Assembly (NCBI GenBank): GCA_963675595.2 | Contig: CAXXLZ010000002.1 | Span: 1,664,001 to 1,728,000, forward strand | Origin: Thermodesulfobacteriota bacterium | GTDB lineage: Bacteria; Desulfobacterota; Desulfarculia; JACQYL01 | Length of the DNA stretch: 64,000 nt | Direction: 5' to 3' | Part shown: positions 67 through 28,342 of the stretch, one piece after another | How positions within the stretch are numbered: position 1 is the stretch's first letter | How the letters are laid out: the number at the start of each line of letters is the position of its first letter | Notes under the pieces: generated by a model | The model's input: only the letters and a program-made list of their open reading frames with translations | Told to the model about the DNA's origin: nothing | The model's database searches: none | Position numbers and translations under genes: made by a program

Positions 67-492
67 CTACTGGACACCAAGCACCCTGCCAACGTCCTCC
101 TGCTTTATAGGACCTTGTACATCCGTTAGATATGGGTTGTCCGGTTTGCCAAGGACAAAGCAAGGTACGTAATCGGGCAAACCGTTAAGAGCCGCAAAAA
201 GGGGAATATAGTCGTCAGACACAACGAACCATACTCCGCGGGGATAGACTAAAAGTTTTTGAAATATTTTTTGCTTGCCTTTCTCGAAGCTGTCCTTGAT
301 TGCAGCTTTTCCGGTCGGATGTAAGTCAGGACGATAGTCCATGTCGAAGGGCACAATCAGGGCGGTTGGAACAGCGGCAAAATAGATAGGCAGATTGCCC
401 TGCATGGCTTGTTCCATTAAACTTAGCAAAATTTCGTCCCTCTTCGGTGTTAATTCGGGCAACGTCTTGATTTCATGCTTTCTCACATACAT
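67..492 (-). CDS. Hypothetical protein, 141 aa; weak ParB/sulfiredoxin-like pattern
   Basis: ORF with purine-rich RBS (GGGAGAAG) downstream of the rebuilt UDG gene; LLVY...FVVSDD..PLFAAL..L...VPCFV loosely resembles the ParB/Srx core. Confidence 0.6.
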   Translation of the reverse strand: MYVRKHEIKTLPELTPKRDEILLSLMEQAMQGNLPIYFAAVPTALIVPFDMDYRPDLHPTGKAAIKDSFEKGKQKIFQKLLVYPRGVWFVVSDDYIPLFAALNGLPDYVPCFVLGKPDNPYLTDVQGPIKQEDVGRVLGVQ

Positions 493-2404: not shown

Positions 2405-3258
2405 GCTCCATCTCCTACCCGCCCTACACTAATTTATCAACGGGTAGGTGTCTCACTCTCATTGGCACAGAGGGTCGTATGAATCCATTTTGCTGTCCAT
2501 AGCCGGAACAGGCATATTTTTATTTTTTATAGAAGGCTCTCCGGTAGGTTTTGAAATGTCATAGCCGGTTACAGTGGATACTTTGTTTTTTGTACCAGGA
2601 TTGCCACCGATAATAGATTGAAGTGACGACTGGATAGATTCGATGATTTCGCCTTGATTCACCTTAAAATAAGCTCCAGTTGGATTTGGGCTTACAACCA
2701 TAGGAATACCATTCCAATTAATGATACGGCCTGCGTCTTTGCCTACGCGAATGCTTTTACCAGTCAACTCATTGATTGTTGGTTCCCCACAGGCAATGAT
2801 TACCTTTGGTGATTTGAACTTAATTTGCTGATAAAGAAAGCCTTTACAATTGTTTGTCTCTTCACTCGTGCTTTTACGGTTTTCTTTTGCAGCACACTTT
2901 ACAAGATTTGAAAAATAGACTCTATTAAAATCAAGGTCAAGCTTCTCAAGAAAGTATCCATAATAATTTTTTTTTACTCGTTCTTCATACTCAGCATCAG
3001 TTAGTTCAAGGCTTTCCCCCGCTGCTTGCCCAGGCCGCTCACCTATCACAAATATGTATTGATCAGGTCTGCTGACAGTTCCAAACCTACGCGTAAGGAT
3101 GATGTCATCAACATAATTCTTACATTTGGAGCATCCTGCAACTTCATGTCTAATTTGATCCATGGTAAGCACATTGGGTTTGTTCATGTGAACAGACTCC
3201 TTACTGTTGAGATTCTAAAATAGGTGTCTCCAAAGGGATCGAGTTGAAATAGTAACTA

Positions 3259-4269
3259 TCAGCGCTCCCTCATTCGTTGCGGGATTGCAGTCTCACTATC
3301 GTATAGCATTCGAGCTCCGGATAGATCGGCCAAAACCAGCTCGATCAATTCCGTGGGTTCCATTACCACTGCCTGAGGCCCCAAGCTTAGGACCCACTGC
3401 TTGATCTCCTCAAGACCGGCCACCTGGAAGGTCAAGTCGAGACGCCCGTCGGGCAGTTTCTCCGCTTTCTGGCTTTCATGCCAAATCTTCTCGCCGATGT
3501 ACCGGGCCCATTCGGCGGATATCCTGATCCGGACCGTGTAAAGGTCTCCCTGCATCACTTTGAAGCTGTGCTTCATGTAATCCTCCAGACTGAAGTCCGG
3601 AGGAATTTCAAAGTGTTCCTCGGTCAAGCGCAACATTCGGATTCGGTCGAGCACGAAGGTTCGGACCTCCTCTCGTAGATGACAATGCCCGATCAGGTAC
3701 AGGGTTCCATCGAAAAACCAGACTTTGTAGGGATCGACTTTTCTTAGGGCTTCCGTTTCACTGGTCAGCGACTTGTAGGCGATCTCCAAACGCAGCGACT
3801 CCAGGGCGGCCCGATTTACCTGGCTGAGAATCTCGCGAAACCTGCCGTATTCCTTGAAGGGTTTGATTCCCACTTGGAAGGTGGATTGGATGGTGTTCAA
3901 ATAGTTGAGTGCTTGGGGCGGCAGGGTGACTCGCACCTTCTTGAAGAGCGACTCCAAGGCTTCATAGAAAGGCGTCCCTCGGAATACTCGCACCAGGTCC
4001 GAGTACAGATGAAGGGACATCAGTTCGGTCACGGTAAAGGGTTGGGGTACCTTGAATTTGTAGGTATCGACGAAAAACCATCGATTGGAACCCTCAAATT
4101 TTTCATAATATAAAGGAAATCCCGCAGCCTGCAGCGCTTCGATATCCCGGTAGGCGGTGCGCAGGGATATCTCCTCCTGCTCGGCGATCTCGGCGATGGT
4201 CAAACCGTTCTTATCCGCTTCGATCGCCCGTAGAATTCTCCATTGTCTGGCCAGCTGGTCACCGCGCAT
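3259..4269 (-). CDS. HTH-WYL-WCX transcriptional regulator (WYL-B)
   Basis: N-terminal wHTH (SLRTAYRDIEALQAAGFP), RKVDPY...LYLIGHCHLREEVRTFVLDRI, C-terminal WVLSLGPQAVVMEP. Confidence 0.92.
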   Translation of the reverse strand: MRGDQLARQWRILRAIEADKNGLTIAEIAEQEEISLRTAYRDIEALQAAGFPLYYEKFEGSNRWFFVDTYKFKVPQPFTVTELMSLHLYSDLVRVFRGTPFYEALESLFKKVRVTLPPQALNYLNTIQSTFQVGIKPFKEYGRFREILSQVNRAALESLRLEIAYKSLTSETEALRKVDPYKVWFFDGTLYLIGHCHLREEVRTFVLDRIRMLRLTEEHFEIPPDFSLEDYMKHSFKVMQGDLYTVRIRISAEWARYIGEKIWHESQKAEKLPDGRLDLTFQVAGLEEIKQWVLSLGPQAVVMEPTELIELVLADLSGARMLYDSETAIPQRMRER

Positions 4270-4360
4270 CCGGACTTACCTATGCTGAAGTGAGAGGGGA
4301 ATCCTGTTCATGAGTCCTTTTATAGGTAGCAGAACCGCGTTTTGGGATCAACTTCGCAGA

Positions 4361-5350
4361 TTACTGCGCCCGTCGAGAACGTCTGTCGGAAAACCGATCG
4401 TAATGTCCCTTCCCGGAGTTGCCTGAACTCTCCTTTTTGAAAACCGAAAGGTGCAGAACTTTTTCATTGAAGGCCAAGGCGGCGCCGGTTAGGAAATCAG
4501 ATTCAAGCCTGAAATCGTGTCCCAAGGCTAGGGAGTTTCGGACTTCGGTGTCGGCGGTGCCAACGGATTCCATGAACGCTCTCGCCTTTTCGGCAGTGGC
4601 CTTGGAAGGGGACTCCTGCTCGAACCAGTCAATGGCGTCCAGAGCGTAACTGCGGATCAGCTTTTTGAAAAAGCCGGCAAACGTGTGCTTGAATCCGAAA
4701 CACTCGGCTCCCAGGATTTTGCCGTTGACGCCGAAGACGGCTCCCACCTGCGCGTCCGTCAAGCGGAATGCTCGTTCATATTCGGAAAGACGAGGTTCCT
4801 CCTTTTGATAGATGTCCGCCATGGCTCCGGTGGCGGACTCTGTGTGCAAACGTTCTCCTTTGGCGGATATCTGCTCCCATAAGGTGTTTTGATCGGACCG
4901 AAATCCTTGATCACGTCTCAGGCTTGTACGAACAGCTTGCTGATGTGCCCGCTTAAGGCTCGGGGGCATCATTTGTCCGCCGGAACGAAATCGCTCGGAT
5001 CGATAGCCCCATCGTCCCTGCTCTACGCAACTGACCGGGATCACGAGCTCGCAAGAGCCGTCTACCAGGAACGTCGAGTTGACGATTCGGTTCTGTTTGG
5101 CTCCATGAAGTTCTTCGCCCTCTACGATCAGCACTTGTTGCTTTCCCCGATTGATCAGTTTCAATTCCGGAACACTGCCCGAGGAGCTCACCTCGGTTAC
5201 CTCGATCTGCTCTCGTTCCAGAGCCTCGTCGAGGGTCAGGTACTCCGGTTCTCCGTTGTCGGGAGCCAGCAAGGGAAAGAGGGTCATGTTGAGATATGCC
5301 TGTTTTCTTCCCACCTTGACGTACGCCAGGTATTCACGAATCGGTTCCAT
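4361..5350 (-). CDS. ARPP-1/DUF6569-family protein
   Basis: YLTLDEAL...EVSSSGSVPELKLIN...GEELHGAKQNRIVN...IPVSCVEQGRW pattern; RBS GGAGG. Confidence 0.75.
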   Translation of the reverse strand: MEPIREYLAYVKVGRKQAYLNMTLFPLLAPDNGEPEYLTLDEALEREQIEVTEVSSSGSVPELKLINRGKQQVLIVEGEELHGAKQNRIVNSTFLVDGSCELVIPVSCVEQGRWGYRSERFRSGGQMMPPSLKRAHQQAVRTSLRRDQGFRSDQNTLWEQISAKGERLHTESATGAMADIYQKEEPRLSEYERAFRLTDAQVGAVFGVNGKILGAECFGFKHTFAGFFKKLIRSYALDAIDWFEQESPSKATAEKARAFMESVGTADTEVRNSLALGHDFRLESDFLTGAALAFNEKVLHLSVFKKESSGNSGKGHYDRFSDRRSRRAQ

Positions 5351-5373
5351 GGGTCACCTCCATTTTTTTCATA

Positions 5374-5408
5374 ATGGGTAACCCACGGGGTTGTCAGATC
5401 AGGACAAA
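5374..5408 (-). promoter_or_regulatory. Palindromic operator TTGTC-N7-GACAA (5391-5407) plus putative -10 for the ARPP-1/WYL-B unit
   Basis: Minus strand reads TTTGTC CTGATCT GACAAC CCCGTGGGT TACCCA ... GGAGG ... ATG. Confidence 0.55.
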
Positions 5409-5528
5409 AAGGAGAGCGAATTTTCTTGGGGTGATGATTTCGCGACGCGCCTTTCAGGTGATCGGCTGACACGGCGACCACGTGAAGTATCCCTCAAATT
5501 ATTTTCAGCTCCGGTAGAGAAGAATTCT

Positions 5529-5564
5529 ATCATTCCGAAATCTGGAATGATGTCGTGCTAATCT
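5529..5564 (+). promoter_or_regulatory. Palindromic operator 1 plus -10 box upstream of the GGCT gene
   Basis: ATCATTCC GAAATCT GGAATGAT; TAATCT lies 9 nt after GGAATG. Confidence 0.7.
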
Positions 5565-5628
5565 TTCCGAATGATGAGAAGCTGGTGTTGAGGCATGAAT
5601 TGGCAGTTAGCTGTTGGAGGGAGGCCGG

Positions 5629-6506
5629 ATGGACAATCTATATTTTGGATATGGTTCCAATCTGAACTTCGATGATCTGAAAAGGTGGTGTGCTCGGAAA
5701 AAAACGGCCCCATCGAGGGTGTGGTAGGGAAGGCCTTCTTGCCGGATTTTGGTCCTGTATACAATTATCTCTCCCGGACCCGTGGCGGTGGTGTTCTAAA
5801 TATCCGCGAGGAGATCGGGCAAGTTGTGCCGGGTGTGCTTTTCGAGATTCGGCCCGATGGGCGGGCAACGCTCGACCGAAAAGAAGGATACCCGAGTGTT
5901 TATACCCGGATCGAAATCACTTGTCTCCTGCAAGACGGCGATACGGCGGACGCCTTCACCTATATGGTCCGAGACATTCACTCCCGGGGGGGATTTGTAA
6001 AACCGTCGCCCGATTATGTCCAAATTGTAAGAAGGGGATTGAATGCTCACGGCGTCATCGAACACCTCCACAAGACGGCGGAAAAGGGAGCGAATACGCC
6101 TTACCTGATCGACCGGATATTCTGCTATGGGACTCTGATGTCCGGTGAATCCAGAGGAGCACTCCTGGAGACCTTCGGAAAGCCTGAAAAACGCCTCAAC
6201 GGAGTGACGCCCGGGCGTCTCTACGATCTGGGCGGATTCCCGGCAATGTCCATGAGTTCATCTTCTGAAGAAATCGTTCACGGAAAGCTCGTTCAAGTGA
6301 AGCGCATCGGGGACTTGCTCGCTTTCCTCGATGGAATCGAGGGCTTCCGCGGATATGGGTGTGAATCATCTCTGTTTGAGCGTCGGATCGTGCGGGTCCG
6401 AACCGAAGCTGGTGACGAATTCGCATGGGTGTATGTCATGGTCGACCCCGGAGACGCTCCAATGATCGTCGATGGGAAGTGGCGTGGAAGGTCCATCATC
6501 CTTTGA
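5629..6506 (+). pseudogene. Tandem gamma-glutamylcyclotransferase (GGCT/AIG2-like) protein, frameshifted near an A7 run
   Basis: RBS GGAGGGAGG plus ATG at 5629 encodes MDNLYFGYGSNL (GGCT start motif) but stops after 32 aa; the rest (5685-6506, LDRKEGYP, second domain IFCYGTL...LDGIEG) is in the -1 frame; A7 at 5698-5704. Confidence 0.8.
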
Positions 6507-6558
6507 ACCCAATCGTCGGCATAAGTTCCAGCGGTGCGGGTCCAGCCAAGGATAACGC

Positions 6559-7566
6559 CTACTCAGGATCACCATATAGGACGGACATATCCCTTATCGA
6601 CGAACGGATTTCAGACCTGAGATCTTCCGGTTCCAGGAGTTCGGCCTGGGAACCGAAACCTAATACCCAGGAAAGCACTTCGAGTCGGCTCGTGGCGGTG
6701 AATTCCAGAATGACGCCGCCGTCGGGTTGGGGAACCATTTGTTGTCCCTCGCTCCAGTTACGCTCCTTGATGTAAACGGCCGCACTGGGACGAAAGGCCA
6801 CCCGGACCTGAAAAGGCTCCCCATCGATGAGTCCGAAACGAATCGACTGCTCGTCCAGGAAGTCCTTCTTCTCGTATTTGTGTTCCGTCGTTTCCGCGGA
6901 AACCAACCGGTGGAGGGCCAGAGTCATTTTGTGCGGGTCGTCGGGAACGGCGTCTTCCCATAAATACCAGGCCAGGACGTAGACGCATTCACCGGAGAGC
7001 ATCAAACGAAAAGGGGCCACGTAGTGGGTGGCCGGTTGTTCCTGGCCCGGCTTGGCATAACGGATTTTGCAGACCTGATGATCCTTCATGGCGGCGAGGA
7101 GTCGCTGGAAGATGTCCTGCTTCCCGGAGTAATCGATGGCTCCTTTGGGCCGGGCCCATGCGCATTTTTCCGGAAGCTCGTCCAATACGGCATCATCGGG
7201 AAGCAGCGCAGTCGCCTTTCTGATCGTGTCGCTGATCCCGTTTCGCAGGGAATCGGGAAGAAGATTCCAAACCAAGTCCCGGCAAAGCAGCAGATGATGA
7301 ATTTGTTCAGGGTCCAACGTCACGTTGAACGCTCCACGGGGTGGCCGAGCTCGGTAATACTTTTCCCGCCCTTGCGTCGAAGTTTCGATCTTAACGTTGC
7401 GGATCAGTTGGAGCTGTTCCACATATCGAATCACGGTCTGTTTCGAACATCTAAGGTCGCCGGCCAGCTTGCTCAATGAATACTTCCGCCTGCTGAACAG
7501 GAGGAGACAAAAAAGACCTAAGGCCTTCATGGCTGGTGTTGAATAGGGGTCCTTTTTCTCTGGCAT
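6559..7566 (-). CDS. HTH-WYL-WCX transcriptional regulator (WYL-A)
   Basis: HTH (LSKLAGDLRCSKQTVIRY), VAPFRL..CVYVLAW..TLALHRL, C-terminal WVLGFGSQAELLEPEDLR. Confidence 0.88.
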   Translation of the reverse strand: MPEKKDPYSTPAMKALGLFCLLLFSRRKYSLSKLAGDLRCSKQTVIRYVEQLQLIRNVKIETSTQGREKYYRARPPRGAFNVTLDPEQIHHLLLCRDLVWNLLPDSLRNGISDTIRKATALLPDDAVLDELPEKCAWARPKGAIDYSGKQDIFQRLLAAMKDHQVCKIRYAKPGQEQPATHYVAPFRLMLSGECVYVLAWYLWEDAVPDDPHKMTLALHRLVSAETTEHKYEKKDFLDEQSIRFGLIDGEPFQVRVAFRPSAAVYIKERNWSEGQQMVPQPDGGVILEFTATSRLEVLSWVLGFGSQAELLEPEDLRSEIRSSIRDMSVLYGDPE

Positions 7567-7718
7567 GGGGCTTTATCCTCCGAAAGTCTGAGATTCTCGT
7601 ATCTGTAGGGTGCCGGGACTATTATTCTGTGGTATCCTGCCTTATTTCAACACGCGTCATACCAAAAGAATAGAACGTTCGGTTCGTCCGCCGGGACCCC
7701 AAACGTTCCAGCTCACAC

Positions 7719-10001
7719 CTACCCACGTGCGGGATTCGACGGAAGCTCTTGGCGCCGCAGATCGGGCGCCTGCGAAGCGGGCCGGAAGCCGACCTCCGTT
7801 GATCCCTTTTGGTATCGTTTGATTCGGGATTCGCTTTCCAGCGCTTCGACCAAGATCGAATGGCTCTCCGGTTTATGGAAACGGAACCGGTCCCTGACCA
7901 CGGCGAAGTCTCCCGGAGCCAGGTCTCGAATCGTTCGTATCCGGGCGATGTCTTCATCGCTGATGAGACCAACCACCAGCGGCTCCAGCATTCGTCGATA
8001 AAACAGCAGATTACCGGACGGCTCCAAGAAATCGAAGCCGACCTTGTGGGTGAATCGGCGAACGGCGGCCTCGTCCACATCCAACAAACGGTTGGTGGTG
8101 CAGATCAGAATTCCTCGGTATGCTTCCATGCTGGAAAGCAGTTCATTGGTGAAGCTCACTTCCCAGGATCGTTGGGCCCGTGACCGGGGAAACAACAGGC
8201 TGTCCGCTTCGTCGATGAGCAGAACCGCCTCGTCGTCTTCCGCACGCCTGAAAGCCTCCCTGATTCGTCTTTCAGTCATGCCCACATAAGGGTCCAGAAT
8301 ATCGCCGGCCCTGCGGACAACCAGGTCGCGTTCCAGCACTCGGGCCAGATGGTGCGCCAGGGCTGTTTTCCCGGTTCCGGGAGGACCATGGAACAGCATT
8401 CGCAGCCCACCCATCACCTCATCGCTCTGATTCAAGCTGCAGCAGGTGAAGGCTCGGGCGTCTTCCATGAGCCGCTCGAAGTCCTGATCCGTATGGAGTC
8501 CTTCCAAAGAGTATTCGGTCTCCGACTTGCGATGGGTCTTGGAGGAAGCATCGGTCGGACCCATGGCCATATAGGCATCAAGGGCCAGGCGAACCGCTTT
8601 TCCGAAATCCTGAGGATTTTCGTCACAGGCGAGCTTGGCCTTCTTGACCGACATGTCGATGACCCCCGCACTCACTTCGAACCTTGAGGCCAATTCCATC
8701 ACATCCGCTTCCTCGATCAAGTCCGAACAATCGTTTCGGGTGAGGATCGAACGCCAAAGACCTTCCCTCTGGGTTCGGTTGAATGGACGGAATCGGATGC
8801 TGAAGGCCATGCGACGTTTGATCGTATCGGGAAGGGATTCGACGTTGTTCACGATCCAGATCATGCGAATGCCCGGACGTTCCAGGAGCTGGTTCAACCT
8901 GCCTTTTTTGTTTTCACGACCCGAGAGGAACCAGGGAACCTCCGTTCCCAGGATTTCGTCCGCTTCGTCCACTACGATGATTGACCCTTCCTTGCTTTGG
9001 TTCGTGAAATTAAGACAGGTGAGAACAGCGTTGAGCTTTGCTGAGGATTCCTTGCCTTTTTCGGCGTAAATCTCATATGCGGGGGTCGGAAGTTCGCTTG
9101 CCAGCCCCCTGGCATAGGAGGTCTTCCCCGTCCCCGAGGGGCCGTAAAGGAGAACATGCGTTGGGGAGTCGGTCCGCCGGGAAAGCAAGCCCATGACATG
9201 AGCCGTTATCTCCTGTGGAACCATATGGTTGGAGAGAGGAATGTCACTCGGAGGAAGCGGTCGGTACCCTTTGCGCCCGATCTCGTGTTGACCGCACTTC
9301 TGCAACAGAATCAAGTAGTCCTGTTCCATCTTGATCCAGTATCCGTTCGACCATATCTCAACGATTTCAAGTTGAGAAAGCCTTGAAAAGACCATGGTGT
9401 CAAGGTGCGATGTCGATACGTTTAAAGCATGGGCAAGGTACTTACGCCCACTGAACCGGAGGCATTCCAGGTGTCTCTCGAAATAGTCCTCAGCCGCCTC
9501 CCAGGCTTGGCACATGAACAGAATCCTGCAAAGTTCGGTTTCCTCGGGTGTCAGGTCGAAGAGCTTTCCGAATTCATGGAACCCGCCTTCAAGGCTGGAC
9601 CCGCTAGACGAGCACAGAAGACCGTCCTTCTCCAGGAGTTTCTCCTGAAGGAGCTTCAAAAGCTTCAATTTGGAGCGCCTGGAACCATGTGTTGAGACCT
9701 TCACCAACAGATCGAAGTCAAGCTCGTCAAAATAGGACATATCGTAGGATTCTCTCGTCAGAACTTCCAGTTCTTTCTGATTCAGGACGCGATACTTGAC
9801 CATCCATTCCTTTATCTCTTCCGGGCTCGGTTCGAGAAGCTTGAAAGCAAATTCCAGCGTCTCCCGGTCCAATCGTCCCGATCCGTTCAAGATTCGCAGC
9901 AGATAGAGAATCGCCTTCTTTCGAAGGAAGCATTCATCCGAGCCGAGGGTTTCCACTCCTTCGTGGAGAACGGTTCTTCTTTTCCTGCGGGTAGGCGCCA
10001 T
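7719..10001 (-). CDS. Double-ring AAA+ ATPase with long N-terminal domain
   Basis: Two Walker A/B sets: GPSGTGKT/IIVVDEAD and GPPGTGKT/LLIDEAD; DEAAVRRF arginine-finger region. Confidence 0.9.
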   Translation of the reverse strand: MAPTRRKRRTVLHEGVETLGSDECFLRKKAILYLLRILNGSGRLDRETLEFAFKLLEPSPEEIKEWMVKYRVLNQKELEVLTRESYDMSYFDELDFDLLVKVSTHGSRRSKLKLLKLLQEKLLEKDGLLCSSSGSSLEGGFHEFGKLFDLTPEETELCRILFMCQAWEAAEDYFERHLECLRFSGRKYLAHALNVSTSHLDTMVFSRLSQLEIVEIWSNGYWIKMEQDYLILLQKCGQHEIGRKGYRPLPPSDIPLSNHMVPQEITAHVMGLLSRRTDSPTHVLLYGPSGTGKTSYARGLASELPTPAYEIYAEKGKESSAKLNAVLTCLNFTNQSKEGSIIVVDEADEILGTEVPWFLSGRENKKGRLNQLLERPGIRMIWIVNNVESLPDTIKRRMAFSIRFRPFNRTQREGLWRSILTRNDCSDLIEEADVMELASRFEVSAGVIDMSVKKAKLACDENPQDFGKAVRLALDAYMAMGPTDASSKTHRKSETEYSLEGLHTDQDFERLMEDARAFTCCSLNQSDEVMGGLRMLFHGPPGTGKTALAHHLARVLERDLVVRRAGDILDPYVGMTERRIREAFRRAEDDEAVLLIDEADSLLFPRSRAQRSWEVSFTNELLSSMEAYRGILICTTNRLLDVDEAAVRRFTHKVGFDFLEPSGNLLFYRRMLEPLVVGLISDEDIARIRTIRDLAPGDFAVVRDRFRFHKPESHSILVEALESESRIKRYQKGSTEVGFRPASQAPDLRRQELPSNPARG

Positions 10002-10130
10002 GGGTGGTTCTCCTTATTGGTGTCTCTTTGTGCGTGATTAGCCGGCCTTGGCGCGCTCCGGGCGCTGTGGCTTCATCAGGGCGGAGGCTGGAAATGGAGC
10101 GCAAGGCCTGAAATCCTCATCGCCATGAAC

Positions 10131-10165
10131 AGGATAAAACAGGATCGTTCCAGATTACGGAACGA
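10131..10165 (-). promoter_or_regulatory. Palindromic operator 2 plus -10 box upstream of the AAA-WYL-A unit
   Basis: Minus strand TCGTTCC GTAATCT GGAACG ATCCTGTTT TATCCT. Confidence 0.7.
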
Positions 10166-10392
10166 AAAATATTTTATCTCTGTGGAAGTTGGGGACGCGT
10201 TTGAGGGAGGCTACGCGTTTACTGCATGGCGGAACTCTCGGGTGGGTTGAAGGTCGGTTCTCCTCGATAGCCTGGGAGAAGTCTCGTCATGCGTTGAACA
10301 GGCTGAAAAGGGGTTTCGATCTCGGAAAAACTTTCATTGCCGTTTCCTTTCGGCTCAAGAAAGTGATTTTCGAGGACGGCGAAAAAATCTGG

Positions 10393-10428
10393 AACGTTCC
10401 GGAATCTGGAATGTTGGGGGTGTATGTT
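10393..10428 (+). promoter_or_regulatory. Palindromic operator 3 plus -10 box upstream of the small membrane gene
   Basis: AACGTTCC GGAATCT GGAATG TTGGGGGTG TATGTT; an extra half site AATCTGGAACG lies immediately upstream. Confidence 0.7.
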
Positions 10429-10510
10429 CGTGCCGTATCGAAAAGGCGTTGAAGCTGAGTATCCGTAATCTCGGTCGGTCGGCAATGATTGGACAAAAGG
10501 AAAAGGAGGG

Positions 10511-10858
10511 TTGGAAATGAATGATTTCAGCATCAAGAAGTTGGATACGGACCTGGACGCTACGGGCGCCCTGGGGCATGTGATTCTGTGGTTCATCATC
10601 ATGGTGGTCACGTTGGGGTTCGGAGCGTTCCTGTTTCCCTACGCCTTCACCAAGACGGTCATCAACAAGACCTACCTGGTGGACGCCCAGGGTCGTCGGG
10701 TCGGCCGGTTGAAATGCGACCTGGATTTGGGGAGTCAGATCGGCCACGCCATCATCTGGTTCATCCTTTCGATCATCACTTTTGGATTCGCGTACTTGAT
10801 CTACTTCTACAAGGTTTTCCAGTACGCCATCAAAAAAACTACGGTGGAACCCGTGTAA
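10511..10858 (+). CDS. Small membrane protein with internal duplication (DUF6693-like)
   Basis: RBS AAGGAGG; two repeats GHxIxWFIxxxxTxGF. Confidence 0.7.
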   Translation: MEMNDFSIKKLDTDLDATGALGHVILWFIIMVVTLGFGAFLFPYAFTKTVINKTYLVDAQGRRVGRLKCDLDLGSQIGHAIIWFILSIITFGFAYLIYFYKVFQYAIKKTTVEPV

Positions 10859-12127: not shown

Positions 12128-13420
12128 ATGACAATTACATGGGGTATTCTGGGTCCCGAATTCTTGCCGAATGCGCGCCGTACGAGAACCCTTGGACTGG
12201 GTGCGTCAGTGCGTTCATTTAATGATCTTGCCGTTCCGGGTCTGGGTGGTGTGTGGTATGGCAAGCAATTGCTGCTGGCGTCACTCGGTGTCGCCGTAGC
12301 GGAGGAGGCACGCAGCCGGGGGGCAAAAGTACAGAATATTGAAGTGGCCAACGCGATTGAAGCGTTGGCCTGTTGGCTGGCCTTCAAGAGCAACGGCTGG
12401 AGTCGCGATGATCGTTTGCGGGGGAATACCAAGTTGCACGGCAAAGACGATTTCAGCTTCCGGCGTGTGCGGCAGCGAAACTTCTACATCACGCAACCTA
12501 TGCGAATGGCGACTGTCCAGGCATTACCGGCCCTTGGCTTTGTCGAATCCGACAGTGCGCGCTTCAACGCATTTCGTTGTTCGGTTCCAGGAAAGGCCTT
12601 TATCGAACAAGCTACTGAGGACTATCGTCCGTATAACAGGTCAGTTATTGATCATCTAACGTCTTGGGTGCAGATGAAAGTTGATCGTGTCGATACGGAT
12701 GCACTTCAAAATGTCTTGTCTCCACTGAATCGACTTCCCGGAAAAGCAATACCGTTGCTTCGCGAAAGAATAAAGCAAGGTGGGAATGAAAGGCATGAAG
12801 ACAAGGAACGCCGATGCGATTCACTAAACTGGGTCGAGGCACTCCGAGTAAAAAGCCTGGATAGGCAGACGTGGGAGCACCGACCAAGAGAAGTTTCGGA
12901 GAAGCATTGGCATGACCTCCAGGCGGGGGCTTTGTTCTTTGAAACACGCGAATCCGCTATTGCGGTACTCGATGCAGCAGAAGCCCACATCGGAAACCAG
13001 ACAATCAGTCAGTCTTGTTGCTTGGCGCATATTCCGGAAGTACTGAACTCTTCGATTGAAAAACTGAAATCAACGGCAAATGAGTATTTGATGTCTAAAC
13101 ACACGGATGAAGAAGCCAACAAATTCTGTCGCGAGTGCGTAGATGACGACCCATCCACTATCTTGCGGACTTTGGTGAAACGAGACGGTCATGTGTTGCG
13201 TTTGGTGGGTGAAGACGTAAAGCCGGGGCCGGCATTTCGCGGTCCGATAATTCAGACCCGATCCGAGGAAGGCGAGGATCAAGACACGCCGCAAGCAATG
13301 GAAATTCCAGTGCCAGAGAGCATTTCCTACCGTGTGCGCAATCTATATCTCTTGAATCTCGATATGCACGGTAAACTGGATGGATGGCTGAAACCATATC
13401 CGAACGGGGGTGAAGCGTGA
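12128..13420 (+). CDS. Hypothetical protein, DUF6361-like N-terminus (Azaca-like component)
   Basis: RTLGLGASVRSFNDLAVPG resembles the LGxG..R..F.D...PG start of DUF6361; GTGA overlap with the next gene. Confidence 0.55.
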   Translation: MTITWGILGPEFLPNARRTRTLGLGASVRSFNDLAVPGLGGVWYGKQLLLASLGVAVAEEARSRGAKVQNIEVANAIEALACWLAFKSNGWSRDDRLRGNTKLHGKDDFSFRRVRQRNFYITQPMRMATVQALPALGFVESDSARFNAFRCSVPGKAFIEQATEDYRPYNRSVIDHLTSWVQMKVDRVDTDALQNVLSPLNRLPGKAIPLLRERIKQGGNERHEDKERRCDSLNWVEALRVKSLDRQTWEHRPREVSEKHWHDLQAGALFFETRESAIAVLDAAEAHIGNQTISQSCCLAHIPEVLNSSIEKLKSTANEYLMSKHTDEEANKFCRECVDDDPSTILRTLVKRDGHVLRLVGEDVKPGPAFRGPIIQTRSEEGEDQDTPQAMEIPVPESISYRVRNLYLLNLDMHGKLDGWLKPYPNGGEA

Positions 13421-15435
13421 GTCGCAGTAGCGAAACTTTGAGACCGCCATCTTTGGCTCAGCATTTCGATGCACCGGATGATTTCACCGGACATTTCGGC
13501 TGGCTGTGCGGCTACTCAGCGGATGCACCATTCCTTGATGAAGCCACTGAACGTTTTTCCCGGCTTACCCGTTCCCAACGCGGCCACGAGGGCCGCATTT
13601 TTCTCGCCGTGGTGCTTGATCCGCATAACCCTCCCGTTTCTCTAACGGATGTGCCAGGGGTGGCGCATTTACGGATGATCAAGGATGCTAATAAGCCATT
13701 CCGGCTGCTGCATGCAAAGGTCGCGTTGCTGGGGTTCCGCCATCAGGAAAACCCCGCAAACTGGCAATTACGCTTGCTGGTGTCTACCGGCAATTGGACA
13801 CGGCAGACGCTCGAAGAGAGTATAGATATGGGGTGGCGTATTGATATCACCAGTGAATCGCTCAGCAACCCGGACGCAGATATCGATCAAGCCTGCACGG
13901 ACATCAAGGCTGCCTGGGATCTATTGAAATGGATTCAGCGGTTCTTCGACTTCCAGCTGCTCAATGCGGCTGGCAATGGTTATATCAATGAAACGAAAAA
14001 ATCATTGCAACAGGTCAACCAATGGATTGATGCATGTTCGAAAAAGGCACAAAGTCGACCGAGGTTCTTAGACAATCGGAGCAAGTCCCTGCTGTCTCAA
14101 CTGCCCGAGAAAGTAAAGGCCTGTTGCGAGGTGAAGCGCAATTACCTAGCCATGGGGTCAGGGTTTTACGAAGAGTCGGCCGATCAGGGAACAGCTCCTA
14201 AATTACCCGTCGCGATCGTTAGATCGCTGCAAAGTGAGGGCTTGCTGACCAAGAATCCGGAAGTGGACCTTTATGTCAATCCTATAGCCTGCCAAGCGAT
14301 AGCAACATCTGTAAACTCATTGCAGTCATTTGGTATCACGATCCGACCTGCGTTTATACCGCTAGTTGTGTTTGGAGAAGGAGCACAGCGTAGCTTGCAC
14401 GCCAAGTTCCTGTTCAGTGCCAACCATCGTGACAGCTCCAATATCTGTGCAAGTGCCTGGATTTATATGGGTTCCGCCAACTTGACCAAGCCGGGTTTTG
14501 ACAATCCAATGAGCGCTGATGCGGGCAACCTCGAGGCGGGGGTCGTGTTTGCTCCGAGCACATTGTATTGGAGTAAAGACAAAACAACTCAAAGTGTTCT
14601 GGTGGTGACGAACCTGCTTCCTATTCAGTGGGACGAGGAGATTGGAGACACGAGCCATTTGTCTGCAGGCTCGGGTATTGAACAACGGGATGAAATCTAT
14701 CTTGCGCCCCCTATTGCCTTTCTCACATGGCACGACAGTGTACCGGAATTACGAACAGATGAACCCGCTGACTATGTCGATGTGCTCGATTCAGCAGGAG
14801 TCGTCTGTTCAAGAAGAGAAAGCGGATTTCAGTGGTGCGAAGCTCAACCCCGGCAAGTTCGCATTCGCTGGCAAGCAAACGATCAGACACTCGAATCCAT
14901 GATACCCATAGTCGATCAATATGGGCGCATAGCCGCCACTGAGCTACCCTTTATTGATATCGATCAGGCATGGTGGCAACTCGCGGATTTTCCAATGCCC
15001 CCGAATGAAGATGACGGAGACGGCGGAAGCGATGAAATTGAAGGCAAGCACAAAGTGCAAGGGCGTTCAGCAGAGATAACCAACTATCCGATACGGCAGA
15101 TGATGGAATTGATTGAAAACATCGCCGCCAAACAAACCAAGATCGACAAATTGGATTTGGATTTCTGGTGCAACCGCCTCGAGCAAACCTTAGGACAAAC
15201 AGCCGAAAGCATTCCCGTGTGATATTTTCGCGACGAGCTTAAGGTGAACCCGTTGAGTCCGCTGCGACACGAGCCATTTCGTCCGTCGTTTGCGGAAAAC
15301 AGTGATTCAGAGCCGGGGAGATTGTACGATAAGACCTTGGATCGGATCGAAGAGATGTGGAAGGTTGATGAATTAGAACGCTTGGGGACTTGCAATGAAT
15401 CGAAAATTCAAGGGCTGGAAAATAGTTGCAGATGA
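13417..15435 (+). CDS. Phospholipase D-fold nuclease with two HxK motifs; in-frame TGA at 15220-15222
   Basis: LLHAKV...VSTGNWT and SLHAKF...MGSANLT; the same frame stays open from 15223 to 15435. Confidence 0.75.
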
Positions 15436-18052
15436 ACTTCGCGCGCTTGCAGATGATCGAGTCATGGAACTCAACGACGGGCAAGTAGCGAGCCTGCATG
15501 CACTTGCCGATCGACTAACCAAGAACGGCGTGATCATTGCGGACGAAGTCGGCATGGGAAAGACTCGGATTGCTACAGCGGTCGCACGTTGTGTGATTGC
15601 GGCTGGAGGGCGAGTTGCGATACTGGCGCCACCGGGGTTGGGCTATCAATGGGGCGACGAATTACGGAACGCCGAAGTCGACGCACCACCAATCTTGCGC
15701 AGCCTCTGGCAATATTTCCAGGCATGGGAGACCGAGGAGAAGTGTGTCCCTTGGTTTCAAGAGTCAGCTCTGGTAGTCTCGCATTCTTTTGCGAACTGGC
15801 GGCTTGGAGAGAAAACTGATCCTTGGCGTTGGGCTTTGCTACCGGAAATATACTATAGATGGCGCAAGCAAACGAACGGACGTTGGCCGCGGGACTACTG
15901 CGGAAACAAAATACTTGGCGACGAGAGGGTTCGACGAGCTGCCGAAAGCATTGTTGGCGCAATAAGCGCCAGCCCAGAAGTGCACCCTGTGCGAAGGTTT
16001 ATTCGCGAATTGGCCGAAAACACGCCGTGGCCAAGTGCGCTCACTGCTGTCGAATATGCGAGTAACGCACAACTGCGGCCCTGGCTGGAACGTGCGGTGG
16101 GACTTGGGATGGGATTGTTTGATTTGGTTATTGTTGATGAAGCACACAAAAGCCGCGGCCAAGGCAGTGGCTTGAATCGATTGCTAAAAAAGGTGGTTTT
16201 GGAATCTACCTTTGCACGCTGCTTAGCAATGACGGCCACTCCCGTGGAGCTTGATGTGGAACAGTGGACGCAGATGTTAGAGCGTATCCAAGTCGAGGAA
16301 TTATCGAAAGAAGCGGCGACCCAGGCAATTAGAGATTACGCTCAAAAAGTAGATAGGGTGAGGCAATGCCCGAGCGACAAAGAGGTGCGTGAGAAATACA
16401 AGCGATCAGCTAAGACTTTCGAACAAGCACTAATTCCTTATATCCTGCGACGTGATAAACGAGAAGAGCCAGCGGTCAAGAAGTTTCAACAAATATCTGG
16501 CGAGGGCTATCACGCCTACCGAGATGAAAAGGAAATACTGATTGATACTGCGCGACTGATTCCCGAATGGAAACATGCGGTGTGCGCTGCGGAAGCCTTG
16601 TCTTTTGTCACACGTCAATCCGACAATACGGCGGCCAAGCGGCTTCGTCTGACCATAGGCAATGGTCACGGAATCGCAGCCCTGATTGATCAATTGCAAA
16701 GAGATGATTTAGATGACCATAGACAAATGAAATCCGATTGCCTCCCTGAGATTACTACACAGAATAACATCGAATCAGAACTTTCCGATGACAAGCGACT
16801 GCTACGTGCAGACTGGTGGCAGAATGTCATGATCAAACCATTCATGAACGATGGATCGACGTTATTCAATCACCCTGCTATTCTGAAAGCAGTCGAAGAG
16901 ATTGAGAAAGCCTGCCGGCGAGGGGAGAAGGTACTGGTGTTCGGGCGCTTTACTCGACCGCTACGCGCGTTGGTGCAATTGCTCAATGCTCGGGAAATGC
17001 TGCGCTGCTTGGAAAACAACCGACTTTGGCCACAATCCAAAGTGCATGAAAACGAAGAATGGGATGCTGTTTTGGCTGCTCGTCGGCAGCTGCAAATACA
17101 AGGAGAATTGGATAGGAATCTTCTGGATCAAGCTCTTGCTAAGCAGTACCAAGTGCTTGAGAATCAGCGCCGTAATATTCGGGGAAAGCTAATTAGACAC
17201 ATCGAAGAAGGGCTCAACAACAACAAGTCGGAGAAGCGTGTGCGAGCACTATTTGATGCTTTCAGGAGGTCGGCTACGGAGGTTCCAAAACAGCTTCAAG
17301 ACAACGACGATCATGCATTGGCTGTAGTGTCTCGGGCGATGCACGAATTGATAGGATCAAGCATTGAGAATGCAGCGTCCTCCGACTTCGCGCAGGCTTT
17401 TACTGAGCTGGTGGTGGCAGCAAGCGATCGCGATGAGGGGGATGCAGACGGCGATGGTCAGCTAGATGAAGATGAAGCCTCTGATCTTTGGGCCGATCTC
17501 AGAAAAAGGTTAGATGAGGAATATAACCGCCCAGAAGGAAGATATGCGCGACTCATGTATGGAGCGACAAAACCCGCAACTCGGCGCTTCCTGCAACTTT
17601 CCTTTAATCGAAAGCAAGGGCACCCGAAGGTACTAGTGGCACAATCACTAGTGGGTCGTGAAGGGCTTAATCTTCACAAGGCATGCCGAACTGTTGTGCT
17701 GTTGCATCCCGAGTGGAATCCAGGTGTTGTTGAACAGCAGATTGGTAGAGTCGACAGGATCGGCAGTCTTTGGGAGGAGAAATTGAACCAGGTGATCGCC
17801 GATAAGCAAACGACTAGCGATCTCCCAAGAATTGAAATCCGCCCGGTCGTTTTTGGCGGTACGTATGATGAGAAAAACTGGCAGGTGCTTCATCACCGAT
17901 GGGATGATTTGCGTGCGCAACTTCACGGAATCGTCCTTACTTCACGCATCGCTGAAAAATATTCGAATGCAGATGAATTGGTCATTGAAATAAATGAAGC
18001 TGCTCCAAACTTTTCACCATTGACCCAGGTATCCTTTTCAGAAGGGGTTTGA
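15395..18052 (+). CDS. SNF2-family (SF2) helicase
   Basis: ADEVGMGKT, VDEAH, MTATP, VGREGLNL, WNPGVVEQQIGRVDRIG. Confidence 0.9.
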   Translation: MNRKFKGWKIVADELRALADDRVMELNDGQVASLHALADRLTKNGVIIADEVGMGKTRIATAVARCVIAAGGRVAILAPPGLGYQWGDELRNAEVDAPPILRSLWQYFQAWETEEKCVPWFQESALVVSHSFANWRLGEKTDPWRWALLPEIYYRWRKQTNGRWPRDYCGNKILGDERVRRAAESIVGAISASPEVHPVRRFIRELAENTPWPSALTAVEYASNAQLRPWLERAVGLGMGLFDLVIVDEAHKSRGQGSGLNRLLKKVVLESTFARCLAMTATPVELDVEQWTQMLERIQVEELSKEAATQAIRDYAQKVDRVRQCPSDKEVREKYKRSAKTFEQALIPYILRRDKREEPAVKKFQQISGEGYHAYRDEKEILIDTARLIPEWKHAVCAAEALSFVTRQSDNTAAKRLRLTIGNGHGIAALIDQLQRDDLDDHRQMKSDCLPEITTQNNIESELSDDKRLLRADWWQNVMIKPFMNDGSTLFNHPAILKAVEEIEKACRRGEKVLVFGRFTRPLRALVQLLNAREMLRCLENNRLWPQSKVHENEEWDAVLAARRQLQIQGELDRNLLDQALAKQYQVLENQRRNIRGKLIRHIEEGLNNNKSEKRVRALFDAFRRSATEVPKQLQDNDDHALAVVSRAMHELIGSSIENAASSDFAQAFTELVVAASDRDEGDADGDGQLDEDEASDLWADLRKRLDEEYNRPEGRYARLMYGATKPATRRFLQLSFNRKQGHPKVLVAQSLVGREGLNLHKACRTVVLLHPEWNPGVVEQQIGRVDRIGSLWEEKLNQVIADKQTTSDLPRIEIRPVVFGGTYDEKNWQVLHHRWDDLRAQLHGIVLTSRIAEKYSNADELVIEINEAAPNFSPLTQVSFSEGV

Positions 18053-21088: not shown

Positions 21089-24000
21089 CTACCCAGCCGC
21101 CGCAGAGGCGGGTCGCTTCGCGTATTCTTCACGCCAGTTTTTTAGCGAATTCATGTCTTCCAGAATATCCTCTGGCTTCGGCAATTCCACTGGTGATTCT
21201 GTAGGCTGCGAGTGTTCAAACCCAGAGTATTTGGTCATGAGCGAATCAAGAAGATTACAATCCGTCTCTTTCAACTTGGCCAGATCCTTGAGCTTCAACG
21301 TATGGACCGGTCGTTGGAATCTTTGAACCACCCCGCACAGCAGATCATTTTCAATAGAGCGCTCCACCAACGTCCTGAAGTCGCTGCATATCGACTTCAG
21401 CAGGATTTCGGCATGTTCAAATTTGTCGCTCTCACTTGCCTTCTTAGCATCCTGATACCGCTGATTCATGAGTGTGTTCAGCGCGGATTTGATGTCACTC
21501 TGTGAAAGTGGAATGGGGGCTGGCTCTCCGGTACCCCAGTCCGCAGAGCGAATGCTCACCACATCGGGCTTGATGGTCTTTTTCTCGGCAAAATGCCTGA
21601 CCGTTCCCAGCAAGGACAGACGGTGAGTAAAGACAATGACCTGTTTATCCTGAGACAACTCGATCAGCCTTTGAACCACGGCCTCCTCGTAGCTTTGGTC
21701 GAGCGAGGATATTGGATCGTCGAAGATAAACGGGGCCTGGTTACTCTTGCCGGTGACGTCGGCCAAAAATGCCGCAATGGAAACGATCCGATTTTCTCCC
21801 TCGCTCAGAACATCGGCGAGCCCATTCTGAGAGGCCCCCCGGAGCTGGAGCTTATGAAGGACGCGGCCCTTGGAGACTTTTGATTTCACGAGCTCAACCT
21901 TCACCTGAGACGCGCCGAGGGTCTTGAGTTCCGCCTTGAATCTTTGCACGAACGCATCCGTGATCAAGGCTTCTGCCAGCTCCCCTTTTTTCTGGGACAG
22001 GGCTTTGGTATTGGTCAAATTCTTGGCTTCCTGAATCTGGCTCAGTAACTTCAATCGGGTGACTTCTTCATCAATGGCGGCGCGGTGCTCAGACAACCAC
22101 TTTCTTGCCTGCAGGCTGTTTAGCTTTTTTTTGATCTCCTCTCGATTGTCGCTTTTGGCGTCTTCGTCATATTTTGCCGCGAGTTCACCGAGGCTTTTCG
22201 TCTGGGCGTTGGCTTCTTCGATCCATTTAGGTGTGAGCAGAGGGTCGGGAATGGCTTCTTCGGAATCGATCCCAGGGAGCAGGTCTTTTCTGGCCTGCAA
22301 TTGAGCAAAGAAATCCGTCACTTGGCTGGCGACTTCATCCTGTGGAATGCCAGCCGCATCGATACGTGTCTTCAGCGTCTCCGATGTCGGTAGCACCTCG
22401 ATAGTTTGACCGGCGGCCTCGTATTCCTTGGCCGCATCCGTTGCGGCTTTCTGCATTTCGCCCTTCATGAAGCTTTCGAAGGAGATCAATCGGTCCTTGG
22501 CCTCCTGAGTCAAGGTCTGATGGCACAGGACACAACGGGAACCATCAGAGACATTCGGGTACTCGGCTTCTTTGTAGGCAGCCGATGCGGAGTAGTTCCG
22601 GGCCGCTTCCCAAAGCTCTTTCCAAACATCAGACCCGATGCCTTCCAACTCGCTGCCGGAGAACACCTTTTCCGCCGCCGTATCTGCCGCTGCCTTCTTG
22701 AGGATCAACTTCTTTTTGGCAGCAATGATCCGGCGATAATTCTCATCCGATAATTGCTTAAGATACTTCTGGGCGGAATGTGTCAATGAAAATGAGACAC
22801 CTGTTTTCAGAAATTAGACTCTCACGTCATCGCTCGACGGTTTGTTGATCCACGCGGCCTTGGGCAATTTTGGCGGCTGTGGCACCTTTCCTTTGAAACG
22901 GTTGGGGTTGCTCCGGAAGGCAGCCCGAAGAACTTGGCTGCGACACGCTACAATGTCCTGGGCGAGTCCGTAATGGAGCTGTTCGGGTGTGACCAACCCG
23001 ATGCCTGAATGCCGATGCTCGGGGTTGTACCAGGAGAAGAACTCCCGGCAGAAAGACCGGGCATCCTGGATTGATCCAAACCGTTTCGGGAATTTCGGGC
23101 AATACTTGAGGGTTTTAAACTGCGCCTCCGAGTAGGGGTTATCATTGCTGACATAGGGTCGGCTGTGGGTCTTGGTCACTCCAAGGTCTCCCATGAACTC
23201 GGCTACGGACTTCGCTTTCATCGCCGGGCCTCGATCCGCATGGATGATGAGTTGGCCGGACTTGATATCCTGCTTGAAGCACGTCTCTTCGATGAGTTGC
23301 CTGGCCAAAGCGGCGCTTTCCCGATGGGCCACCATCCAGCCGACCACGTAGCGGCTGAAGATGTCCATGATCACGTAAAGATGGAAATAGGTCCACTTCA
23401 CAGGCCCTTTTAGCTTCGTAATATCCCAGGACCACACTTTGTTGGGTCCGGTCGCAAGCAACTCGGGCTTTTTATAGACAGGCCGCCGCGCCTGCTTTCT
23501 TCGCTCTTTGACATCACCGGATTCCGCTTTGAGAATCCGGTACATGGTCCGGATAGAGCAGTAGTACTGTCCTTCATCGAGCAAGACGGCAAAGACCTGA
23601 CGGGGAGCATCATCCTGAAAACGGGAGCTGTTAAGCAGATCGACCACGGTTTCCCGCTCCTGGGGGTTCAGAGCCAAGGGAGGCGCCGGCCGAGGTGTGC
23701 GGGCCGCCGCCGGCTTCAGGCGGCGATAGAAACTCGCACGGGGCAGGCCCATGGCTCCACATGCCTGCACGGTTCCCACCTCGGTGCGCAGCTCCATCGC
23801 CGCGCTCATGAACTGCTCCCGTCGTCGTCCAGGTCCGGCTGAGCGATCCCCAGTATCTCCGAGATTTTTTTTTGAACTTCGATGATGGTTCGCGCCTGTT
23901 TCAGTTGATTCTCGAGACGGCGGTTCTCCCTTTCAAGCCGGGCCACCCGCTCTGCCATAGGGTTCTTCTGCTTGGGCTTCCGGCCTCGCTTCTTTGGCCC

Positions 24001-28200: not shown

Positions 28201-28330
28201 ATTCATTCTTTATCACGCCAGGGTCAATCCGATAGGCAATGCCGGAGGTACTGATCTGCCCCGCAAAGCAGTCCACAACGGTTTCCACCGCGCTGGTCTG
28301 GTAGGGCTGGACTTTAAACTTCAGTTTCAT
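25259..28330 (-). CDS. res: Type III restriction endonuclease Res subunit
   Basis: [35 protein letters not shown]-terminal YNPDW...AETK nuclease. Confidence 0.93.
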
Positions 28331-28342
28331 GCCAAGCCCTCC

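Follow-up and report, generated by a model that had tools for sequence, protein, structure and literature searches.

Does a compact cluster of genes that carries two transcriptional regulators act as one machine, or does it hold separate regulons side by side? The question is raised by positions 3259 to 10858 of a 64-kb stretch of DNA from a Thermodesulfobacteriota bacterium, which is called the window here. An earlier note on this DNA had proposed the cluster as one candidate undescribed multi-gene system. WYL regulators, two of which are found in the cluster, are among the commonest unexplored bacterial sensors, and to our knowledge only few of their regulons have been worked out, namely those of PafBC, DriD, SiwR, CapW and BrxR. 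We called genes from a listing of open reading frames (ORFs) together with Pfam profiles, and both confirm the genes that the note had described:

3259-4269, minus strand: WYL1, regulator and probable binder of operator A (Pfam HTH_11 3.5e-9, WYL 1e-19 and WCX 6e-19)
4361-5350, minus strand: ARPP-1, 329 residues (PF20208, E 9e-98, whole profile covered)
5629-6506, plus strand: tandem GGCT, AIG2-like (Pfam GGACT 2e-27 in two stretches, and AIG2_2; ORF listed as 5685-6506)
6559-7566, minus strand: WYL2, regulator and probable binder of operator B (Pfam HTH_11 1.5e-3, a partial WYL match of 6.5e-7 and WCX 1.6e-19)
7719-10001, minus strand: AAA2, a double AAA+ ATPase of 760 residues with two P-loop AAA modules (Pfam)
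10517-10858, plus strand: DUF6693 membrane protein, 113 residues (PF20403, 1e-40; ORF 10511-10858)

We think it fairly probable that these genes form two adjacent, self-contained WYL regulons of the SiwR/DriD kind, whose regulators are probably activators triggered by single-stranded DNA (ssDNA), within a defence and repair island, rather than one machine. The promoters of the locus contain the following sites:

5391-5407, minus strand: operator A, palindrome TTGTCCTGATCTGACAA, 10 nt upstream of the -10-like box TACCCA; promoter of ARPP-1 and WYL1
5533-5547, plus strand: operator B1, followed after 11 nt by TAATCT (5559-5564); promoter of GGCT
10148-10162, minus strand: operator B2, followed after 11 nt by TATCCT (10136-10131); promoter of AAA2 and WYL2
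10397-10411, plus strand: operator B3, followed after 11 nt by TATGTT, extending to 10428; promoter of DUF6693

Operator B reads TTCCGnAATCTGGAA and is present in three exact copies in the window. Exact matches to TTCCGNAATCTGGAA are found at 5533+, 10148- and 10397+ only, all of them intergenic and within the locus, and an extra half-site, AATCTGGAA, precedes operator B3. With up to two mismatches allowed, the window holds five matches to TTCCGNAATCTGGAA versus a mean of 0.84 in 100 shuffled sequences, none of which reached five. The 6.8-Mb genome contains nine exact copies of operator B, for which simple arithmetic gives about 0.05 expected by chance. Intergenic sites make up seven of these: each copy of an island that occurs twice in this genome has three, and one more lies beside copy 2. 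At each of the four distinct intergenic sites, a TAnnnT box is located exactly 11 nt downstream. The two ARPP-1 promoters are the only places in the genome with operator A, if a weaker match within an ORF is set aside. Both operators are composed of 5-bp half-sites with a 7-nt spacer at a fixed distance to the -10 box, and the GGA of operator B is positioned at -27 to -25 if the -10 box is taken as -12 to -7. No sigma-70 -35/-10 pair was predicted at the operator A and B promoters; one was predicted just upstream of WYL2 (7650-7621), and the total of predicted promoters was not above that in shuffled sequence. The shared promoter architecture reported in the earlier note is real in so far as operator B stands before three units, but ARPP-1 and WYL1 have a different palindrome in a similar layout.

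We compared these promoters to those of related genes in other genomes. Operator-B-like sites with the 11-nt spacing lie between a WYL2-type gene and an AAA2 orthologue in loci L003, L084, L085, L099 and L110, the last being a plasmid of Desulfosarcina sp. BuS5; L070 has an operator-B-like site too, but with the box TTTAAT. L074 pairs ARPP-1 with a WYL2-type gene (44% identity to WYL2), again with an operator-B-like site between the two. WYL1-type genes of 62-67% identity next to ARPP-1 come with operator A in L064, L068, L069 and L077, and this palindrome is followed by TAnnnT after 10 nt in all 11 of the other ARPP-1 upstream regions examined. Sites at a fixed spacing to a -10-like box are in this way conserved together with the matching type of regulator. 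From this co-occurrence we take WYL2 as the probable binder of operator B, and WYL1 as that of operator A.

Further operator sites were noted outside the locus. The intergenic operator B beside copy 2 (L104 6925-6939; G000:C2:4702925-4702939) has TATCCT 11 nt downstream and is located about 300 nt upstream of a family-less 590-residue gene and a 623-residue AAA_5 gene, which may be an extra regulon member without counterpart in the window copy. No DNA-repair regulon emerged at the other genomic operator B sites (exact or with one mismatch), the neighbours of which are unrelated (ATP-grasp/CoA ligase, radical SAM protein, SpoIIE phosphatase, histidine kinase). A second operator A, with TATGAT 10 nt downstream, is found beside the WYL1-ARPP-1 pair of L056 (11553-11570; G294:C42), where it precedes a 175-residue ORF and a Cas3 homologue (PDB 4q2c, E 3e-88); a WYL1-type regulator may drive a type I CRISPR-Cas operon in L056. 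L063 has two more operator A sites ahead of family-less genes.

How could such promoters work? SiwR is described as a homodimer whose site, a palindrome of 19 bp, is located between -35 and -10 and carries a conserved GGA at -26. It also binds ssDNA, and in response to genotoxic stress it switches on the genes next to it, probably through sigma adaptation of the PafBC kind (PMC10693628). The DriD dimer is described to bind CGAC-N7-GTCG once ssDNA is present, and to activate didA, recA and others (PMC10853764), with the didA product being a small membrane protein that inhibits division (PMC9186387). The layout of half-sites and spacer, the fixed distance to the -10 box and the GGA near -26 lead us to read WYL1 and WYL2 as homodimeric, ligand-activated activators. 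Both have the domain order HTH-WYL-WCX, and WYL1 aligns over its full length to the solved PafBC (6sj9, 5e-13) and DriD (8tp8, 3e-12). Judging from SiwR, DriD and PafBC, WYL1 and WYL2 would each form a homodimer and sense a nucleic acid through the WYL domain; this signal is most likely ssDNA arising from damage or phage replication, and less certainly so for WYL2. The dimer would then occupy the palindrome over the -26 region and allow housekeeping RNA polymerase to start. In unit A, one operator A promoter would drive ARPP-1, WYL1, a family-4-like UDG gene and a gene for a 141-residue protein. In unit B, three operator B promoters would drive AAA2 followed by WYL2, GGCT, and DUF6693; in the sister copy, a DUF2779 nuclease-family gene follows GGCT. 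More tentatively, AAA2 may be a Cdc48-like protein unfoldase with a winged-helix-like N terminus that recruits it to DNA or a partner, ARPP-1 a cysteine-dependent enzyme acting on the sugar moiety of damaged or modified nucleic acid, and GGCT an enzyme cleaving gamma-glutamyl amides. The UDG-like and DUF2779 proteins could contribute a glycosylase and a nuclease as further outputs, and DUF6693 might stop cell division or affect the membrane, in the way of DidA in the DriD regulon.

Several observations weigh against this picture. Induction, its direction (activation or de-repression) and its signal are all things we infer. The operator A promoter in the window reads TACCCA and not TAnnnT, and two exact operator B matches lie, unexplained, inside unrelated large ORFs at C1:853995 and C3:84246; the products of these ORFs are a 1035-residue protein with CarboxypepD_reg and PKD domains and a 773-residue GAF-PAS histidine kinase. 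WYL2 is divergent: among solved proteins it matches PafC alone (1.3e-4), and it differs where WYL1 and PafC align in an R-x-F-x-L-D-R stretch. Given this altered position and the partial WYL match, the ligand of WYL2 may not be ssDNA. No operator was found upstream of the AddAB-like genes of the island, and the island's repair genes are therefore not demonstrably part of the regulon. The operator A ahead of the Cas3 homologue in L056 points to immunity over repair.

The same sites could be read with the opposite sign. WYL1 and WYL2 would then be repressors of the BrxR/CapW kind, which silence an anti-phage module until infection, with AAA2 plus DUF2779 and DUF6693 as effectors that possibly kill or arrest the cell. 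We consider this unlikely, although an operator over the -35 region would also suit a repressor, the top PADLOC scores of WYL1 are to CRISPR-associated WYL models, and the L056 site just mentioned would fit. The distribution is patchy and includes a plasmid, and the setting is that of a defence island, with a Type III restriction-modification system, a PDC-S06 gene split by an insertion sequence (IS), an HKD+Snf2 gene and a ZacB/ZacC-like pair of PLD and SNF2 genes next door. Against repression stands the operator-to--10 distance, which is exact to the nucleotide across genomes and comes without a -35 box: these are traits of SiwR/PafBC-type activators, and a repressor needs neither. Nor does any of the proteins match a known defence effector in PADLOC. 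Our search of PADLOC-DB v2 (2023) did not return any complete system; the matches are limited to WYL models and to the AAA-domain portion of the IetA/TRIP13 models, and ARPP-1, GGCT and DUF6693 have no match there. With such generic hits only, the earlier note was right not to see a named defence system in the locus. Viral contigs almost never carry ARPP-1, and PHROG has no family for it, which is neutral with regard to defence. A defence role and an activation mechanism are compatible in any case, and only the sign of regulation is at stake. The surroundings contain repair genes as well: the duplicated island has AddAB-like, UDG-like and DUF2779 genes, and the plasmid-borne WYL-AAA2 pair has a gene for a Y-family polymerase next to it. 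A damage- or infection-induced role, as the note had suggested, fits this context, and repair and defence roles are compatible because ssDNA arises in both.

Could the seven genes nevertheless form one obligate multi-protein system that removes a protein or nucleotide modification from a single substrate, as proposed in the earlier note? They are clustered, operator B precedes three of the four units, the entire block has been retained twice in the genome, and L070 has ARPP-1 directly alongside a WYL2-like gene, an AAA2-like gene and DUF2779, a set that also lies within 7 kb on the metagenome contig L121. The ARPP-1 neighbourhoods that we analysed (40 places) come from 39 of the 62 other genomes found to carry ARPP-1, and those of DUF2779 (again 40 places) from 38 of the 53 others found to carry that gene, with longer contigs and higher scores favoured in both; several of the fetched contigs end near the gene, and absences are thus undercounts. 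ARPP-1 is found in 63 of 401 genomes of the phylum (this one included). A WYL gene is present in 24 of the 40 ARPP-1 loci by BLAST and in 26 by clustering, and every non-WYL neighbour is common to at most 11. Full-length AAA2 orthologues (34-42% identity) occur in 13 of 400 other genomes, with a WYL gene, the sole neighbour in common, in 10 of 20 AAA2 loci. DUF2779 is found in 54 of the 401 genomes, and its 40 loci contain a WYL gene in 11 cases, AAA2 in three and an ARPP-1 fragment in one. Sets of AAA, WYL and DUF2779 genes were seen in L147, L135, L206 and L210, and in looser form in L085 and L097. Scanning genome contigs with AAA2 alone gave one short locus only, and a metagenome scan with an AAA2 alignment, in which a generic Walker-A pattern was used, gave one close orthologue among 80 loci and a few distant AAA-WYL-DUF2779 sets.

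ARPP-1 and AAA2 are thus mostly found apart, each with its own WYL gene, and no other locus that we examined contained the full seven-gene set. Of 300 other genomes of the phylum, just two were found to have tandem GGCT, and in both its vicinity lacks WYL, AAA2 and ARPP-1 genes. DUF6693 was found in none of 400 other genomes, and its plasmid matches were in Agrobacterium only; the 7.6-kb region had no match in E. coli genomes. By these neighbourhood comparisons, the seven-gene set is specific to this genome and consists of two recurrent regulator-cargo pairs plus local recruits, with GGCT and DUF6693 looking like recruits that acquired operator B in this lineage only.

The two copies of the island bear on the same point. 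Positions -5800 to 11516 of the window match G000:C2:4705694-4723314 (L012) at about 96% identity, and the duplicated block also holds an AddB-like PD-(D/E)XK gene (869 residues), an AddA-like UvrD-family helicase gene (1070 residues), the family-4/UdgX-like UDG-superfamily gene and the gene for the 141-residue protein. Three lesions set the window copy apart from copy 2: an IS in the UDG-like gene, a 4-bp deletion in GGCT and a missing DUF2779 gene. Alignment of the copies places the deletion after position 5707, where it causes a frameshift; copy 2 is intact, and GGCT is thus broken in the window, as the note had implied. Contigs from four public runs carry GGCT both with and without the 4-bp stretch, and they mix the two copies. 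The DUF2779 gene in copy 2 codes for 528 residues, is located between GGCT and WYL2, and is flanked by 119-bp direct repeats. Between the copies, synonymous divergence (dS) is 0.05-0.19, which suggests either an old duplication or two separate acquisitions. The ratio of non-synonymous to synonymous divergence (dN/dS) is 0.06-0.34 across genes, with 0.06 for DUF6693, and the remaining genes have thus been kept by selection in both copies. Since these remaining genes are under purifying selection despite the lesions, GGCT, DUF2779 and the UDG-like gene are dispensable to the others. On these grounds we hold a single obligate system to be very improbable.

We give hardly any credence to a PafBC-like heterodimer of WYL1 and WYL2 that would recognise operators A and B alike: the locus does contain two WYL paralogues of matching length (336 and 335 residues) and PafBC is described as such a heterodimer (PMC6789036), but both operators are palindromic while the PafBC site is not, each regulator type stands alone with its own operator elsewhere, and the two genes are not adjacent.

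We next consider the products of the two adjacent regulons, which remain our preferred interpretation. AAA2 contains Walker A and Walker B motifs in both D1 and D2, together with arginine fingers; a Y/W-V-G pore loop was seen in D2 only, and D1 has no evident aromatic pore loop. In a model of the whole protein (pLDDT 79), D1-D2 resemble Cdc48, Rix7, NVL and p97 (Foldseek E 1e-19), and residues 20-240 fold into helices and a small winged-helix-like element. The N-terminal 260 residues have no Pfam match; in the Atlas they fall into a cluster with 33% of its members in a 'winged helix domain, variant' family, which we take as a lead only. AAA2 is most likely a protein-threading unfoldase. AAA2-like paralogues of 24-34% identity are found three in tandem in L103 (G054:C1) and in G034:C9, with a WYL gene 1.2 kb away in L103, and the double AAA+ family can thus apparently form arrays.

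An alignment of 34 ARPP-1 sequences reveals C108, E110, K85, Q86, N87, R88 and also Q154 as invariant. The structure model (pLDDT 91) has a beta-rich fold with an inserted barrel. A sequence search of the PDB gave nothing under E 0.16, and Foldseek against the PDB identified no relative (best E 2.7e-3, template-modelling score 0.11). Likewise, a wide VIA-align search reached a top Z of 4.3 with no outstanding row and no relative identified. The missing solved relative does not show that the modelled fold is new. The true start of GGCT is ATG 5629, the early residues hold Y-F-G-Y-G-S-N, and the protein matches human GGCT at 3e-7. DUF6693 contains two hydrophobic segments and an internal repeat (residues 6-63 versus 62-113, 33% identity, E 4e-9). 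The 'duplicated membrane protein' of the earlier note is therefore duplicated within itself: it is one 113-residue protein, and the upstream ORF 10189-10452 shows no relation to it. This ORF contains an operator, has zero synonymous versus two non-synonymous changes between the copies, and is probably not a gene; we rejected it.

It is possible, if rather doubtful, that one of the two pairs is the core of something wider. A WYL2-type regulator, the winged-helix AAA2 and the DUF2779 nuclease, often accompanied by ARPP-1, would together make up an undescribed, horizontally mobile system triggered by nucleic acid, whose promoters would extend the '-26 element' activation of SiwR and PafBC outside Actinobacteria. 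Such a system might clear protein or sugar adducts from DNA, or it might attack phage DNA; in the former case, the unfoldase and the nuclease would act with the cysteine enzyme at abasic or modified sugars.

Three further features lie to the left of the locus:

67-492, minus strand: family-less 141-residue protein, terminal gene of the ARPP-1/WYL1/UDG-like strand
881-2473, no strand: IS element with rve integrase and HTH_Tnp_1 ORFs (Pfam), sitting in the UDG-like gene, outside the module
2459-3187, minus strand: UDG-superfamily gene, family-4/UdgX-like (PF03167), 242 residues here, truncated by the IS, and 347 residues in copy 2

The 141-residue protein is identical in both genome copies and has no match in Pfam, NCBIfam or PHROG. 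The UDG-like gene matches the NCBIfam type-4 UDG model at 2e-15, which is under the cut-off of that model, and family-4 UDGs in the PDB at 7e-10. The IS has 24-nt terminal inverted repeats (886-909 and 2446-2469) and is absent from the sister copy, where its flanks abut with a 4-bp overlap. It occurs at 11 places in the genome, two of them in the window: the second copy, at 22774-24367, is 99% identical, has the same orientation and lies 20 kb away, where it splits the PDC-S06 defence gene (21089-22786 and 24330-25262).

An Orc1/Cdc6-like AAA+ gene with a Cdc6 C-terminal winged helix (L013 2935-4209) is found in this bacterial genome next to the left end of the island, just upstream of the window. 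On the other side of the locus, three co-directional genes at 12128-18052 code for a family-less 430-residue protein, a PLD/Tdp-like protein of 601 residues (ZacB 1e-8) and an SNF2-type helicase of 885 residues (PDC-M27C 4e-21, ZacC 2e-10); they may be an Azaca-like or PDC-M27-like defence candidate. Positions 25259-34208 contain genes for a Type III restriction subunit (1023 residues) and a methyltransferase (629 residues), followed by that for a 1090-residue HKD+Snf2 protein (PADLOC C3a139, 1e-125).

The locus contains two regulator-operator pairs that can be read from sequence and hold across genomes, and these pairs may serve as probes for four families to which no role has been given: ARPP-1, AAA2-type AAA+ proteins, DUF2779 and DUF6693. 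Two diverged copies, one of them decaying, make up a natural experiment on which parts are dispensable.

We compared the two regulons to known systems. GGCT shares two recognised domains with GGCT/AIG2-like enzymes, but the ORF in the window is frameshifted and that in the sister copy intact. The link of ARPP-1 to ADP-ribosylglycohydrolases (ARG) and phosphatases, which the earlier note drew from its name, does not apply here: no ARG or rhodanese-phosphatase Pfam domain is found among the scanned proteins of the island or its flanks. The ARG-centred systems that counter ADP-ribose (Iyer et al. 2022), to which ARPP owes its name and whose ARG gene usually comes with a rhodanese-phosphatase, are thus not represented among these proteins. 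AAA2 resembles the double-ring unfoldases Cdc48, p97 and VAT in its two AAA+ modules, the Walker motifs in both and the aromatic D2 pore loop. It differs in the D1 pore loop and in being linked to a WYL regulator, and probably in its N-terminal region, which is modelled as helical and winged-helix-like where theirs is beta-rich.

A two-gene neighbourhood of WYL and ARPP has been described in silico, with ARPP directly beside the WYL regulator and proposed to act on sugar moieties via a cysteine (Iyer, Burroughs, Anantharaman and Aravind 2022, PMC9503650). It has the domain pair seen here, the invariant Cys and Gln (C108 and Q86 in our protein) and a predicted beta-rich fold with no characterised relative. 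In the portions of that paper available to us there is no operator, no link to AAA2 or DUF2779 and no experiment; its supplements may list neighbourhoods with AAA2, DUF2779, GGCT or DUF6693. The earlier note's word 'undescribed' thus no longer applies to the WYL-ARPP-1 pair. In a literature search that left most subscription journals outside, we found nothing in print on WYL with AAA2 (and DUF2779), on both operators, on the fixed spacing or on the recruitment of GGCT and DUF6693; WYL with AAA2, often with DUF2779, is apparently a second recurrent pair that is unreported.

The DriD regulon of Caulobacter crescentus has palindromic half-sites 7 nt apart and a site in the regulator's own promoter, and it includes a small inner-membrane protein, DidA, among its targets; WYL1 aligns to DriD along its entire length. 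In contrast, the DriD half-sites are CGAC/GTCG and those found here TTGTC/GACAA and TTCC/GGAA, DriD is a global regulator (recA, recJ and others) and our sites are confined to the island, and DUF6693 has no shown similarity to DidA. PafBC, from the mycobacterial DNA damage response, is described with the same domain order, an ssDNA trigger and a site that adjoins the -10 box and replaces the -35 box (PMC8635444, PMC11804915, PMC6789036), but it is a heterodimer with a non-palindromic site (PMC6789036) and controls about 150 genes.

The SiwR/dinS operon of Mycobacterium smegmatis likewise has a local HTH-WYL-WCX regulator beside the genes it controls, and a palindrome between -35 and -10 with a GGA near -26. 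SiwR is a homodimer that responds to a genotoxic stimulus, and both properties are predicted in our case. Its cargo is DinB/YfiT-like, whereas an AAA+ ATPase, GGCT, DUF6693 and ARPP-1 are found here; one of our regulators would serve three promoters, and a second regulator with another operator is interleaved. If the fixed spacing from operator to -10 box reflects sigma adaptation in our promoters too, this mechanism would not be limited to Actinobacteria.

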